In this document: one piece after another, positions 1,213-51,344 of the stretch
Numbering within the stretch: the stretch's first letter is position 1
How the letters are laid out: every line of letters begins with the position of its first letter
NCBI GenBank assembly: GCA_963772455.1
Contig: CAVYXJ010000010.1
Coordinates: forward strand, 384,001 to 448,000
Length of the DNA stretch: 64,000 bases
Direction of reading: 5' to 3'
DNA from: Candidatus Bathyarchaeota archaeon
GTDB lineage: Archaea > Thermoproteota > Bathyarchaeia > Bathyarchaeales > Bathycorpusculaceae
The notes under the pieces: model-generated
The model's input: only the letters and a program-made list of their open reading frames with translations
The model's database searches: none
What the model was told of the DNA's origin: nothing
Translations under genes and position numbers: made by a program

Positions 1213-1563
1213 TTACTCATCATCAACTTTGAGGAAGCGTTTTATGGTTGCCATAATCTCTTGCAATCCCTTGGCTGACAATGGGGGATTATATGGAATC
1301 CTTAACACATCCCAACCTTGCTTTATTAGTAAGTCAGTGATTTCTTCGTCGCGTTCAATTGCTTTGTCTTTTTTATGTACCGGCATGCCATCTAAATAGA
1401 TGATTTTGCGTTTTTCCATCCAACAAAAATCTGGAATAGTTGATTTTAAAATGATTTGTTGCTGTGTTACCATGCCGCGAGTTAATCCAGACTCGCTTAA
1501 AGACTTGAAAACTTCGATTTCTGCTCTGCTAACTGTTGGATGCATGCGTTCTTTATAACTCAA
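1213..1563 (-). CDS. DUF559/Vsr-like small PD-(D/E)XK endonuclease
   Basis: SRAE...PDF...IYLDG..H...RDEEITDLLIKQGWDVLRI pattern typical of Vsr/DUF559. Confidence 0.7.
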   Translation of the reverse strand: MSYKERMHPTVSRAEIEVFKSLSESGLTRGMVTQQQIILKSTIPDFCWMEKRKIIYLDGMPVHKKDKAIERDEEITDLLIKQGWDVLRIPYNPPLSAKGLQEIMATIKRFLKVDDE

Positions 1564-1657
1564 ATTGACTCACGAAAGAAAGCATAACATTTGACCCTTA
1601 ATAAATTATATATAAAAAATCAAATAATACCTTATCTAAAATCATAACCAAAATTAG

Positions 1658-1768
1658 GCTTGACGGATCGCCAGTTGTTAACCCAAGACGCGATCAAAAG
1701 CAGTCCCCTAATCCTTCTTTAGGGGGCATAAACGATCCACATCATGGTTAACGGCTGACCCGTCAAGC
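1658..1768. ncRNA. Candidate structured ncRNA (111-nt rod-like hairpin)
   Basis: gcttgacgg/ccgtcaagc closing stem, cagttgttaacc/ggttaacggctg, gatc/gatc and cccctaa/ttagggg nested stems; GC-rich within an AT-rich intergenic region. Confidence 0.5.
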
Positions 1769-1934
1769 GTGGGTGTACCTCTTGGATGGCTATTTCTCGC
1801 AAATAAACAACTATTAGCCAACTATAAATGGAATTGTGGGTGTGTCCAGGTGACAACAAACATTAAGCTATTCCAAGAAATTTTCTGAAATAGAAATAGA
1901 AAGAAAAATTCAAACTCAATTTTTCATTTGATAG

Positions 1935-4364
1935 TTACTCGATTTTCTTTTGTTGAGTTTGCCCAGCTGGATATTCTCTAAGTTTGTCCGCCATCTCTTT
2001 TAGGTGCTTATCCACAAGGTAATTTACTGTGCCTTCTTCGAAGGTTCCATCTGCTTGCCTCTGGCCACCTTTTAATCCCGTAAGTACTTCAATGCCTTCA
2101 TCGATGGTTTTAACTGAGTAAACTTTGAATTTGCCCGTATTTACTGCTTCCACGACTTCTTCTTTAAGCATCAGATTTTGAACGTTGCTGTCAGGAATCA
2201 TTACGCCTTGTTCACCCGTTAATCCTTTGGCTTTGCAGACTTCAAAGAAACCTTCGATTTTTTCATTTACGCCGCCAATAGCTTGTACTTCTCCTTTTTG
2301 GTTAACTGATCCAGTAACTGCTATGTTCTGTTTTATTGGTAATCCGCTAAGCGATGACATAATACAGTATAGCTCGGTGCTTGAAGCGCTGTCACCTTCG
2401 ACGCCTTCATAGTTCTGTTCAAAAACTAGTCGAGCTGAAAGACTTAGAGGTTTGTCTTTGGCGTATTTATCATTTAAGTAACCGCTGAGAATCAAGACGC
2501 CTTTAGTATGGATTGGTCCACCCATTTTTGCTTCTCTTTCAATGTCTATAATGCCTTCTCGGCCCAAACCAATACTGACTGTAACGCGGGAGGGCATACC
2601 AAAAGCGAAGTCTCCTAACCCCATAACTGACAAACCGTTAACTTGCCCAACTTTCTGGTCAACTGTGTCAATTAAGAAAAAGCCACGAGTAATCATTTCT
2701 TGAATTTTTTCTTGAATCAGCTTTGAGCGATAGATTTTTTCTTCTATAGCCTTTTTGACGTGTTCCCCACTTATGAATTCAGAGTTATCTTGCGAAGCGT
2801 AATAGTTTGACTCCCGAAGAATATCGGCAATAGCAGAGAATTGTGTAGATAACTTATATTGATCCTCAATTATCCTTGAGCTATACTCAACTATTTTTGC
2901 TAAACCAGCACCATCAAGATGTTTGAGATTTTCTTTTTCGCAAAGACCACAAACGAAAGCCGCATACTGCTGAACTTTTTCGTCGGTTCTGGGCATAGTT
3001 GTGTCGAATTCTGCTTTTATTTTAAAGAGTTCTTGGAAATCAGGATCCAAGCTAAACATCATTTGATAGAGGTAAGAAGTTCCTATTAGAATAATTTTGG
3101 TCGTTAATGGAATTGGTTGGGGCTTAAGGGTTTTTACACTTAGGAATCCGTAGCGTTCTTCTGGTTCTTCAATTGACATTTTTTCGTCTCTGATGTCGCG
3201 TTTTAAACCGTCGTAGGAGAATGGATTTCGCAGCAAATCTTCGACAGGTATGATGAGGTATCCACCGTTAGCTCTATGTATTGATCCTGCTCGAATCATG
3301 CTAAAGTCAGTTGTGAGGGCGCCGAATTGAGCTTCTTTCTCTGTTCTGCCAAGCAAATTATGATATGTTGGGTTGGTCTCTACAACTACTGGGGCGCCTG
3401 TGCTGTTGGAATTATCGATGACTAGGTTTACTTCATATTTTTTGTAAGGTTCTTCTCTCATCCAGGGCATTGGAAAAGGAAACTGCTGTTCGGGTTCACC
3501 TCTCCTAATGAACTGCTGCAGATTTTCTAAAATATCATTTTCTACCTCTTTAAGGTAAGTTGTAACTTCAGAATAAACCCGATATTTGTCTGCAAGACCC
3601 TCCATCTGGTTTCCCAAGGCATAGAGGGCAACTTCCTTGTTTAGTTTCTTTAAAGCTTCATGGATTTTACGTTCCATATCGATTAATTGCCGCATTGTGG
3701 TTCGAAATTCTGATTCTAATGCTTCTCTTTTCTCATTAAATTTATCCTTTATTTTTTGGGGGAGCGCCAACAATTCTTCATCGCTAAGTGGTTTACCATC
3801 TAAAACTGGAACCAGCAGAATACCGATGGGGGTGGTTTGAATAACGAATCCTTCACTTTGAGCTTTGATGCTTAATTCGTTGATTAATTGTTTACGTTGA
3901 TTTTCCAACTCTTTAATTGTTGCTTCTCTTTTGGCAACGTAGTCGTCGCTTTCAAAAGCTTTCGGAAGCGCAGTTTTTGCATTCTCAATGAAGTTTTTGA
4001 GGTCTTCACGGAATTCTTTACCTTTTCCTGCCTGCAACTTTATTGCTTTTGGCTCATATTGATTGCTAAAATTGTTGACATAGCACCAGTCAGGTGGAAC
4101 AGGCTGGGTTTTAGCTTGAGCTTCTACAAAGTTTTTAACTGCAGTTTTTCTCCCTGTTCCAGGGTAACCCGCAACATATACATTAAATCCGTGATTTTTT
4201 ATACCTAATCCGAATTTTAAGGCTCTGACAGCTCTTTCTTGACCGATGATTTCGCTAAGTGGAATTAGGTCTTTGGTCGAGTTGCAATGCATAAAATCAG
4301 AATTACAAATATTCCGTAGTTTCTCTACTGGTAACTGGTTAATCAAATTAAAAATCTCCTGCAA
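1935..4364 (-). CDS. Lon-like protease (LonC/AAA_32 type with Lon_C domain)
   Basis: IGQERA, HRANGGYL, GQVNGL, EGDSASSTE (catalytic Ser) and NEKIEGF (catalytic Lys); true start may be slightly downstream (~4346). Confidence 0.88.
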   Translation of the reverse strand: MQEIFNLINQLPVEKLRNICNSDFMHCNSTKDLIPLSEIIGQERAVRALKFGLGIKNHGFNVYVAGYPGTGRKTAVKNFVEAQAKTQPVPPDWCYVNNFSNQYEPKAIKLQAGKGKEFREDLKNFIENAKTALPKAFESDDYVAKREATIKELENQRKQLINELSIKAQSEGFVIQTTPIGILLVPVLDGKPLSDEELLALPQKIKDKFNEKREALESEFRTTMRQLIDMERKIHEALKKLNKEVALYALGNQMEGLADKYRVYSEVTTYLKEVENDILENLQQFIRRGEPEQQFPFPMPWMREEPYKKYEVNLVIDNSNSTGAPVVVETNPTYHNLLGRTEKEAQFGALTTDFSMIRAGSIHRANGGYLIIPVEDLLRNPFSYDGLKRDIRDEKMSIEEPEERYGFLSVKTLKPQPIPLTTKIILIGTSYLYQMMFSLDPDFQELFKIKAEFDTTMPRTDEKVQQYAAFVCGLCEKENLKHLDGAGLAKIVEYSSRIIEDQYKLSTQFSAIADILRESNYYASQDNSEFISGEHVKKAIEEKIYRSKLIQEKIQEMITRGFFLIDTVDQKVGQVNGLSVMGLGDFAFGMPSRVTVSIGLGREGIIDIEREAKMGGPIHTKGVLILSGYLNDKYAKDKPLSLSARLVFEQNYEGVEGDSASSTELYCIMSSLSGLPIKQNIAVTGSVNQKGEVQAIGGVNEKIEGFFEVCKAKGLTGEQGVMIPDSNVQNLMLKEEVVEAVNTGKFKVYSVKTIDEGIEVLTGLKGGQRQADGTFEEGTVNYLVDKHLKEMADKLREYPAGQTQQKKIE

Positions 4365-27514: not shown

Positions 27515-27620
27515 ACAATGACACCATGCATAGGCCAAACAACAACGACGCAACACACTATATACGAGAAATATGTGTTTCACCAAACGCCAAACAGACA
27601 CTACCATTGGCCCGAAACAT
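27515..27620 (+). repeat. 5' arm of 23S processing stem (pairs with 30635-30730) with a BHB-like motif
   Basis: ccatgcataggccaaac/gtttggtctatgcatgg; cagacactac/gtagtgtctg; bulges aaa and ata around cgcc/agcg. Confidence 0.85.
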
Positions 27621-27621
27621 G

Positions 27622-30633
<3,012 letters not shown>

Positions 30634-30988
30634 GATGTCGAGTCAATGTAGTGTCTGAGCGATATTTGGTTGAGACGCATATTTCGGTGTAGTGTGATGT
30701 AGTGTTTGGTCTATGCATGGCGTAACTGTCATATTGCTTAGAATTTTCTTTTTTTTTATTATTTTTGTTATTTTATGGATAGAGTAAAGAAAGATTTTTA
30801 TTAAAAAATCATGTTGTATTTGGTTTTTCATTGTTTACTTATGGGTGTTAGTTTGTAGCCTTTTTTTTATTTGATAATCTGAGTAGTTAACTGTTGGGAT
30901 TGAAGCTGGGAAAACAATTGTCCCGATTAGTTTAGTTGTTTTTGAGTAAAAGTTAAATCTTCATTACAGCTAAGATTCGCTGATTGAG

Positions 30989-50773: not shown

Positions 50774-50975
50774 TGTGGTTGAGTCTAAACCCCACTGCAA
50801 CACCGCCTAGTCAAATAACGCTTGCCAAGACTTATCCTCGATCTGATCTCAGATTCATCCGGCAGACGCTTAAGGACCAATACTGCGTGTCACCGTGAAG
50901 CTTGTTCCTCAACCGGCAACTACAACATACCTTTTGACGGAATATAATGTTATGTTGGCACCTTAAGCCGCCAAC
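50774..50975 (-). ncRNA. Candidate ~200-nt structured ncRNA divergent from tRNA-Leu
   Basis: ggcggcttaaggtgccaa/ttggtccttaagcgtctgcc stem, inner gttgccg/cggtgac and tgagg/cttca stems, followed by a T-tract. Confidence 0.5.
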
Positions 50976-51038
50976 TAGAAACAGTTGAATTAGATGCAAA
51001 AAACTTAAACAATAGCGCGCAGTCATTACGGTGCTGGT

Positions 51039-51161
51039 GCCGGGGTATCCGAGCCAGGTCTAAATGGGCGGCCAGATAACAATTTGCCCCTAAGATATGG
51101 AGGAGGACTTAAGATCCTCTGGCGCAGGCCTTCGTGGGTTCAAGTCCCACCCCCGGCACCA
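51039..51161 (+). tRNA. tRNA-Leu(TAA) with ~35-nt intron in the D-arm (about 51064-51098)
   Basis: GCCGGGG/CCCCGGC-A-CCA, GAGGA-CTTAAGA-TCCTC, long variable arm; insert forms a gtct/agat helix with 3-nt bulges. Confidence 0.9.
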
Positions 51162-51344
51162 TTTAAAAATAAATTAATAAAACAATGTGGATTTTTTGTT
51201 ATTTTGATAAAAATCCTTCAGTTTTATACCTTTATTTTTAAGGCTTCGACAGCTTTTCAAAATGTTTTTTTGCTTTCTGTCAGGAGCACATCTTAGCATT
51301 TCCACTAAAAAAATAATATTGCAACCTTTTAGTATTCCAATCTG

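Follow-up and report, generated by a model that had tools for sequence, protein, structure and literature searches.

The question raised by this locus is whether a conspicuous hairpin next to a small nuclease gene belongs to that gene or is a gene in its own right. The window analysed is a stretch of 64,000 nucleotides (nt) from a Candidatus Bathyarchaeota archaeon (contig CAVYXJ010000010.1, positions 384,001 to 448,000 of the forward strand). The hairpin lies in its intergenic region 1564-1934, which is flanked by two minus-strand genes, one for a DUF559 protein and one for a Lon-type protease. The initial annotation had offered three explanations for it: an independent non-coding RNA (ncRNA), a nuclease-associated RNA such as an antitoxin or guide, or the remnant of a miniature inverted-repeat transposable element (MITE). 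We conclude that the hairpin is the core of a larger unit, a free-standing small RNA (sRNA) gene running from about 1801 to about 1646 on the minus strand; very probably it is an independent, expressed and structured sRNA, whose link to the nuclease is one of synteny. The best explanation as a whole, to which we assign a probability of about 0.62, is that this free-standing structured sRNA acts in trans, with a lower rod that binds protein and a 5′ arm that serves for recognition.

The rod itself (1658-1768, 111 nt, minus strand) is an imperfect inverted repeat, as had been read from the letters. The repeat search returned paired arms at 1658-1676/1750-1768 and 1672-1683/1746-1757, and the structure model contains five helices (P1-P5) with 33 pairs, arranged as nested stems with bulges, in which the lower stem P1 pairs 1757-1768 with 1658-1669. 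The fold of 1640-1790 reached -52.4 kcal/mol on the plus strand (z -3.71; 1 of 200 shuffles equally good) and -57.6 kcal/mol on the minus strand (z -4.52; 0 of 200), and the fold of the whole unit, 1646-1801, reached -57.9 kcal/mol (z -3.89; 0 of 200). The region also differs in composition from its surroundings, with a GC content of 0.50 in 1651-1800 versus 0.28-0.34 in the flanking intergenic DNA. A second rod of similar size, which had been pointed out at 50861-50972, was not significantly structured (z -1.27 and -1.32) and gave no covariance-model match.

Comparison with relatives showed that this fold is maintained. A first covariance model (R1), built from 18 close sequences, recovered all 95 sequences supplied to it, namely 93 distinct homologues, most of them retrieved by an exact 23-mer of the 5′ arm, and two sequences from another genus. 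In the alignment of the 95, 27 of the 33 model pairs change on both sides and 92.1% of cells are paired; this alignment was fitted to the model, so that the covariation counts lean towards structure. Double-change cells numbered 244 against 69 expected, none of 500 shuffles reached the observed values, and pairing fell to 50.8% or less in controls with slid partners. The sequence of the rod varies down to about 70% identity among relatives, while the core of the arm stays constant; the lower rod (P1-P3) is conserved in sequence as well as in pairing, and it is common to a paralogue described below. The minus strand folds more stably than the plus strand in 87 of the 93 homologues (mean -48.2 versus -38.3 kcal/mol). 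Pair 50-217 is GU in 74 of the 95 sequences, and many such G-U pairs would become A-C mismatches if the plus strand were the RNA. Because of the energy asymmetry and the G-U pattern, we place the RNA on the minus strand, as are DUF559 and Lon, and the same two observations rule out a plus-strand RNA. Inspection by eye found no convincing K-turn, C/D box, H/ACA or bulge-helix-bulge motif in the RNA.

The hairpin is therefore real, but it is not the whole functional unit. The covariance model and an RNA-library contig delimit a gene of about 156 nt (1646-1801, minus strand), which we call the type A rod RNA. A broader model (R2), built from the 95 sequences, matched the window at 1644-1803 on the minus strand with 162.5 bits (E 3.9e-43). 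When the 20 best loci were aligned with their flanks, conservation extended from about 1645 to about 1860. In plus-strand order this block begins with a short conserved run, GTAACCAAAAGTAG, and continues with the rod and its compensating changes, 30 constant bases, about 20 variable bases, a near-invariant TATAAAT and a TTGTGnnTGT-N9-ACAACAA block. On the RNA strand, the rod is followed directly by a 3′ tail (1646-1657) with a U4 tract, which the model consensus keeps as four or five U; this is likely an archaeal oligo-U terminator. The rod is preceded by a single-stranded 5′ arm of 33 nt (1769-1801). The TATA box of the gene (1822-1829; TTTATA on the minus strand, near-invariant in the 20 loci) lies about 21-24 nt upstream of 1801, a spacing that fits the end of the RNA contig at that base, and the minus-strand TATA-like box noted earlier near 1828 is thus the promoter of the RNA. 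Still further upstream, at 1834-1860, is a conserved promoter element (TTGTTG ... [CG][CT]CACAA on the minus strand), which is probably a transcription-factor half-site. The element was not found in the 5S, signal recognition particle (SRP) RNA and tRNA promoters of the same genome. The repeat of GTGGGTGT that had been noted at 1769 and 1837 does have a second copy, at 1836-1843 rather than 1837, but that copy is not conserved: relatives read GTGACTGT or GTGATTGT there, so we regard the repeat as a coincidence of this genome.

The arm is the most constant part of the unit. Its core of 30 nt (1771-1800) is identical in 20 of 20 loci, four of which carry one extra T; these loci were collected by BLAST with 1650-1780, a query that contains only the first ten bases of the core. 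The arm is near-fixed within each of the three genera in which the RNA was found, and its 7-nt centre, AGCCAUC in the RNA, is kept across all of them with a loose pattern behind it. In the centroid fold the arm is unpaired apart from five unsupported pairs. The minimum free energy or centroid fold pairs the arm with the U-rich internal loop or the 3′ tail; this was considered and is unsupported, because the partner positions vary while the arm is constant. A small open reading frame (ORF) behind the Shine-Dalgarno-like GAGGT of the arm was also rejected: its ATG is present only in part of the genus (ACG in the window genome) and its reading frame would cross the covarying stems.

Evidence of transcription came from RNA libraries, of which four runs contained small shares of the stretch; contigs of relatives were placed at 80% likeness. 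One contig of 177 nt in run X16, from a relative, spans precisely 1646-1801 (14 differing letters, 6 gaps; word depth 53). Its remaining 20 letters abut 1801 and are presumably Illumina adapter read-through, and therefore many inserts ended at base 1801. Adapter was seen at three contig ends in X15 and X16, of which two lie on DUF559 and one on the RNA; all three point the same way, which is weak evidence that the RNA and the minus-strand DUF559 mRNA share one polarity. Word depth was 53 for the RNA contig versus 3.5-4 for the DUF559 contigs, depths which do not rank expression. Stretches without contig cover, as well as runs X19 and X20, are uninformative on absence of transcription. The unit thus has what is expected of an independent archaeal RNA gene, namely a conserved TATA box of its own at a suitable spacing, a U-tract behind the rod and a discrete contig in a metatranscriptome. 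Together with the covariation and with stand-alone homologues in another genus, these features uphold the first of the three explanations.

The RNA is single-copy in its genome. BLAST with 1650-1780 returned one full match in the 2,445,428-base genome, and the other six matches were 14-19 nt long (E at least 0.97). Most genomes of the same genus carry one full-length copy, 69-87% identical, with 29 of 36 matched at E up to 1; the same search in other genera gave no convincing match. When up to three mismatches were allowed, a single copy of the arm's 30-mer was located in each of 37 of the 56 other genomes searched within the genus, and none of the other genera among the 98 sampled across the order contained it; some of the misses within the genus are due to a one-base insertion. 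Throughout the genus the locus keeps a fixed position in synteny with a thioredoxin reductase-like gene (TrxR) and Lon, as part of a vertically inherited core. A remnant of a MITE or other mobile element, or an oversized terminator of Lon, would fit the size and inverted-repeat shape of the hairpin and its position downstream of Lon on the same strand. The genome-wide copy search argues against a MITE, since there is only one copy in 2.45 Mb; that copy is syntenic, its pairs are kept by compensatory changes, the RNA has its own promoter between Lon and the rod, and many relatives have an extra small ORF between Lon and the RNA. We give this explanation practically no weight.

Outside the genus, R2 was run over 151 genomes of the family. 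Besides the genus itself (g1), it matched a second genus, g44, at 64 and 58 bits, with a third, weak match at 21 bits in another g44 genome, and a third genus, g26, where two copies scored 41.7 and 39.3 bits and others 31 and 27 bits. A weak match was obtained in a fourth genus, g129 (21 bits, E 0.008). The g44 and g26 homologues have the same ACAGTCACAA-TATA arrangement upstream. No match was found in 105 genomes of ten other families of the order, where the stricter filters of large runs may lose weak matches. Contigs that share the 23-mer of the arm are nearly all assigned to Bathyarchaeota or Bathyarchaeia, including ‘Ca. Bathycorpusculum’ and ‘Bathy6’ bins, and we take the few bins under other names for binning errors. 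In metagenome contigs, the exact 20-mer of the arm was found in 82 stretches, and the model recognised the whole RNA in 78 of 80 loci scanned. The two rod-less loci (L265 and L275, on contigs of 37.7 and 158.8 kb) have the same AT-rich sequence from two samples and probably represent a chance match in a very large collection, a judgement made without a computed expectation. We conclude that this is a previously undescribed RNA family, found only in one family of Bathyarchaeia: a Bathy-6/Bathycorpusculum-like genus and two neighbouring genera.

This distribution bears directly on the link with the nuclease gene. The rod ends 95 nt from the TTG start of DUF559 at 1563, close to the distance given before. 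DUF559 orthologues, 57-75% identical, are present in 33 of the 151 genomes and in 10 of the 70 genera of the family; when 29 of their loci were scanned with R1 (filters off), the RNA adjoined the gene in only four, two in g1 and two in g44, and was absent from the other 25. One species of the same genus (locus L173) lacks the RNA at its DUF559 locus. In g26, the RNA copies lie on contigs other than the DUF559 contig, where they adjoin trm1, ilvC, an NTPase gene and an rpoH-like gene; two are in tandem in one genome, and at locus L188 there is no downstream gene on the strand of the RNA. DUF559 also has a promoter of its own, a BRE/TATA box at 1596-1613 on the minus strand that is not part of the RNA. 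A box of the AAGTTATTAAGG type stands about 35-50 nt before the conserved TTG/GTG start in all genera, with or without the RNA; we conclude that DUF559 is transcribed from its own promoter because this box is common to all of them. The box near 1606 that had been proposed as a plus-strand promoter is this minus-strand promoter, kept in genera that have no hairpin. As the RNA is far from DUF559 in g26 and missing at 25 of 29 loci, and as DUF559 has its own promoter, the link between the two is best described as synteny. The initial annotation had coupled absence of the hairpin beside orthologous nucleases with lack of transcription; the RNA is indeed absent beside most orthologues outside the genus, and it is transcribed.

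Two ways of tying the RNA to DUF559 were weighed against these data. In the first, the RNA would be a cis element of DUF559, acting as a structured leader, as an attenuator or through transcriptional interference, with its terminator setting the flow into the gene. In all 20 loci examined in the genus, and in two of three in g44, the RNA does immediately precede DUF559 on the same strand; about 35 nt separate the end of its U-tract from the DUF559 TATA box, and one RNA-library contig bridges 1358-1692. Neither the retention of the BRE/TATA box in every genus nor the 25 of 29 loci without the RNA upstream agrees with such a role, and nor does the g26 arrangement, including L188 with no same-strand gene to control. 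In two relatives the spacing between the RNA and DUF559 has grown to about 370-470 nt, and the paralogue of the RNA lies in a 1.1-kb stretch without ORFs of 80 amino acids (aa) or more. A cis element is improbable as an explanation of the RNA; a cis effect on DUF559 within this genus, by interference or read-through, is possible, and it cannot be the general function of the RNA.

In the second, the RNA would be a partner of the nuclease, either an antitoxin of type III that binds the DUF559 protein or a guide that directs it. The order of RNA, terminator and small nuclease gene on one strand recalls ToxI-ToxN, and a constant scaffold with a 5′ arm resembles a guide RNA. Type III systems differ in several respects: the only tandem repeat in 1400-2000 is a 6-nt unit of 2.7 copies at 1887-1902, with no families of direct repeats; DUF559 matches no defence-system model in PADLOC; and its predicted Vsr-like DNA-nuclease fold differs from those of known toxin families that are RNA-guided or cleave RNA. 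In g26 and in most genera with DUF559, the RNA is not coupled to the gene, which keeps its own promoter. Together with TrxR and Lon, the locus forms part of a syntenic core that is inherited vertically, and searches of the rest of the genome and of viral contigs returned no match to the arm. We therefore consider a nuclease-associated RNA very improbable.

The reading as an independent sRNA gene led by its own promoter element agrees with the presence of a paralogue, type B, in the same genome. It was found through weak second matches of R2 in other genomes of the genus and confirmed by a scan of the own genome for the promoter motif and a pattern search for the lower stem. It lies at about 197220-197360 of contig C12 on the minus strand (locus L226:2721-2861), scores 13.7 bits with R2, and recurs in at least six further genomes of this genus. 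Type B and type A have in common the lower-stem (P1) sequence TTGGCGGATC ... GGTCCGCCAA, the P3 sequence GACGCGAA / TTCGCGTC and the promoter element CTTGTnGCTGTnG ... CCAGTCACAAAGTTATTTAT. The 5′ end of type B is different, being short and variable between species.

Other strongly folding, rod-like stretches were seen in the same genome at C9:177683(+), C12:168215(+), C23:4315(+) and C7:137435(-), with -37 to -61 kcal/mol per 200 nt; the copies at C12:168215 and C23:4315 are near-duplicates. They follow TTGT...[AT][AC][TC]CACA[AT]-TATA promoters, and several have CU-rich, anti-Shine-Dalgarno-like loops. Rod-like stretches behind shared promoters may form a co-regulated set of small RNAs. A palindrome-like TGTGA(C/T)-N-(A/G)TCACA was also observed immediately in front of the TATA-like boxes of RNA genes and protein genes alike, at 45 sites of 1031 half-site occurrences in the genome (e.g. 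C7:7927(-), C10:416204(-) and C21:31150-31163), which is a count only. As a motif, it looks like a candidate site of one transcription factor.

Comparison with known RNAs gave no relative. At the gathering score of Rfam 15 nothing matched the RNA, an archaeal large-subunit (LSU) rRNA and four tRNAs being the sole matches in the window. With E up to 10, the region 1500-2000 gave three weak unrelated matches, none of them on the rod; no relevant match was obtained for the paralogue or for the g26 and g44 homologues, and ARAGORN found no tRNA or tmRNA at the locus. A disguised 5S, SRP or RNase P RNA is ruled out, as the true copies are found elsewhere above cut-offs (5S on C13, SRP on C2 and C5, RNase P on C12, with the small-subunit rRNA also elsewhere). 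The two SRP RNA matches, C2:8678-8992 and C5:140801-141115, both score 158.2 bits and differ by one base in the 90 nt upstream, and are either a real duplication or an assembly duplicate. Literature searches on non-coding or small RNAs of Bathyarchaeia or Bathyarchaeota and on ‘Bathycorpusculum’ found no paper on such RNAs among titles and abstract openings.

In architecture, several known classes offer partial parallels. Y RNAs (RF00019), which are bound by Ro60/Rsr in animals and some bacteria, are likewise about 100-150 nt long, with 5′ and 3′ parts that pair into a long rod, a sequence-conserved lower stem, pyrimidine- or U-rich internal loops, an oligo-U 3′ end, a variable upper part and few paralogues per genome. 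However, they lack a 33-nt single-stranded 5′ arm, and no Rfam match links them to the present RNA. No TROVE/Ro gene (PF05731) was found in the genome, which is 92.4% complete, whereas control genomes matched as expected. The resemblance, drawn from what is generally known of Y RNAs, is one of architecture and not of homology. The bacterial 6S RNA is also an abundant protein-binding rod in which shape counts over sequence, but the present RNA has no large central bubble and no Rfam match, and its lower stem and arm are conserved in sequence. The HgcC/E/F/G class comprises GC-rich orphan ncRNAs of AT-rich archaea. Like them, our RNA is a stable structured RNA forming a GC island (0.50 versus about 0.30) in intergenic DNA; unlike them, it matches no Rfam family in sequence or structure, those included.

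A parallel for the 5′ end is with bacterial sRNAs of the RybB/OmrA type, in which a single-stranded 5′ end is the most conserved part and is followed by a stable hairpin and a U-tract, and which are free-standing genes with their own regulated promoters. By this analogy the RNA would be a base-pairing regulator, the arm acting as seed for mRNAs or for a stable RNA, with the rod and U-tract serving only for stability and termination. The differences are that the present RNA is archaeal, with a far longer rod (about 40 bp) and a conserved arm of 30 nt, and has no target above chance. Genome-wide ungapped complementarity of a 36-nt arm (G-U allowed) reached a best score of 36, versus 34-43 for 15 shuffled arms, and BLAST-short of the arm against the genome gave only 10-12-mers, or 15-mers with one mismatch. 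Duplex energies of the arm with pre-16S, pre-23S and pre-5S rRNA and with the 5′ regions of DUF559, Lon and TrxR were no better than those of 25 shuffles; an earlier arm-rRNA comparison had used long windows and is uninformative. The exact 20-mer of the arm had no match in viral contigs. Eight nucleotides of the arm are complementary to GGAUGGCU near the 5′ end of 23S rRNA (position 27-34), which would favour pairing; a complement for a 7-8-mer can be expected in 5.3 kb of stable RNA roughly three times in ten, and the match is what chance often gives. Thus, no antisense target above chance was found for the arm, which may still pair through a short seed. Thirty invariant bases far exceed what a seed requires, and the 20-mer stands beside a rod in 78 of 80 metagenome loci. 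Pairing through a short seed is the main rival to our reading and, on these data, an unlikely one.

The reading that we prefer is an sRNA that acts in trans through a protein. Transcription starts about 21-24 nt downstream of the TATA box that bears the special upstream element, and ends at the U-tract directly behind the rod. The RNA would act in trans, with a target other than the adjacent DUF559 gene. The lower rod, whose sequence is kept in both paralogues, would most likely be a platform for protein binding, and the invariant 5′ arm would be the recognition module of a ribonucleoprotein (RNP), contacting a protein or a short nucleic-acid site. This scaffold-plus-arm RNP mechanism specifically is put forward as tentative, at somewhat less than even odds. 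A bolder version, which we think improbable, would see the two paralogues as a class of ‘scaffold-plus-arm’ RNAs with a dedicated promoter element, in which P1-P3 loads the protein and the 5′ end programmes recognition. The type A arm would then be a hard-wired guide or adaptor, for example for the GGAUGGCU site of pre-23S rRNA, in the manner of an assembly RNA such as U8 or U3.

Several points weigh against the preferred reading. The mechanism is deduced from the anatomy of the RNA. Invariance of the arm in the 93-sequence set is by construction, and only the 20-locus set is unbiased in this respect. Expression evidence is thin, consisting of assembled contigs of relatives (about 87% identical) and not of raw reads from this organism; RNA libraries may carry DNA, and contig depth is no measure of expression. 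The argument from adapter orientation depends on three contigs and on the reading of their end letters as adapter. Two contigs also cross the boundaries of the proposed unit: one in X20 (depth 10) spans from 1703 through the TATA box and 140 nt further upstream, and one in X15 (depth 4) runs from DUF559 (1358) to 1692 inside the rod. They would represent read-through or longer transcripts, or else DNA, between which contigs cannot tell. Finally, the RNA and DUF559 are adjacent in all 20 loci of the genus examined, where a local cis effect is possible.

Among the uncultured archaea of soils, peat and sediments, Bathyarchaeia rank with the most abundant. Here, they are found to have a well-delimited, apparently expressed and strongly covarying RNA, which has an unusually invariant arm of 30 nt and a paralogue; the promoter element common to the two suggests co-regulation. 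The RNA gives a first study of RNA-protein interactions or of an RNA regulon in this lineage a concrete starting point, and its covariance model can be used for annotation. The present evidence makes it a new RNA family with a narrow taxonomic range, which falls short of a new kind of system. It is also a reminder that a conspicuous hairpin may lie next to a nuclease gene without any functional tie between them.

The neighbouring gene at 1213-1563 (minus strand, TTG start at 1563) is a genuine gene, predicted to encode a 116-aa DUF559/Vsr-like protein of the PD-(D/E)xK nuclease fold. The protein matched DUF559 in Pfam with 33.2 bits (cut-off 20.6), and invariant residues among orthologues include PDFCW, LDG, H and D. 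In NCBIfam only sub-threshold Vsr and DUF559 matches were found, and comparison with sequences of PDB chains gave a single chance-level match. The AlphaFold model has a mean confidence (pLDDT) of 79.4, and its best Foldseek match is Vsr (1cw0_A; TM 0.70, E 1.2e-3, just above the 0.001 line), with further matches to the catalytic domain of I-Bth0305I (3r3p) and to a Neisseria DUF559 protein (3hrl). The TrxR gene lies further left of DUF559. On the other side, upstream of the RNA on the same strand, is the gene for the 809-aa Lon-type protease (1935-4364, minus strand).

The host is a Bathyarchaeia, with a Bathy-6 or ‘Ca. Bathycorpusculum’-like genome. Its 23S rRNA gene lies at 27608-30645 of the window without an adjoining 16S; the 16S gene was found at C9:175231-176724 and the 5S gene on a third contig, so that the rRNA genes are apparently unlinked, or else the assembly is broken there. 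At 51030-51170 on the plus strand is a stretch which by eye resembles a long-arm tRNA of the Ser/Leu type with an intron, on which ARAGORN and the Rfam gathering score were silent. In the window genome, about 75 nt separate the upstream promoter element from the stop of Lon. Many relatives, such as those at loci L008, L015, L018, L019 and L026, have a conserved small ORF here that is absent from the window genome; located on the same strand, between the promoter of the RNA and Lon, it encodes 45-57 aa with one hydrophobic helix (M..LLP..IF.F..GW.MY..GDQK...).

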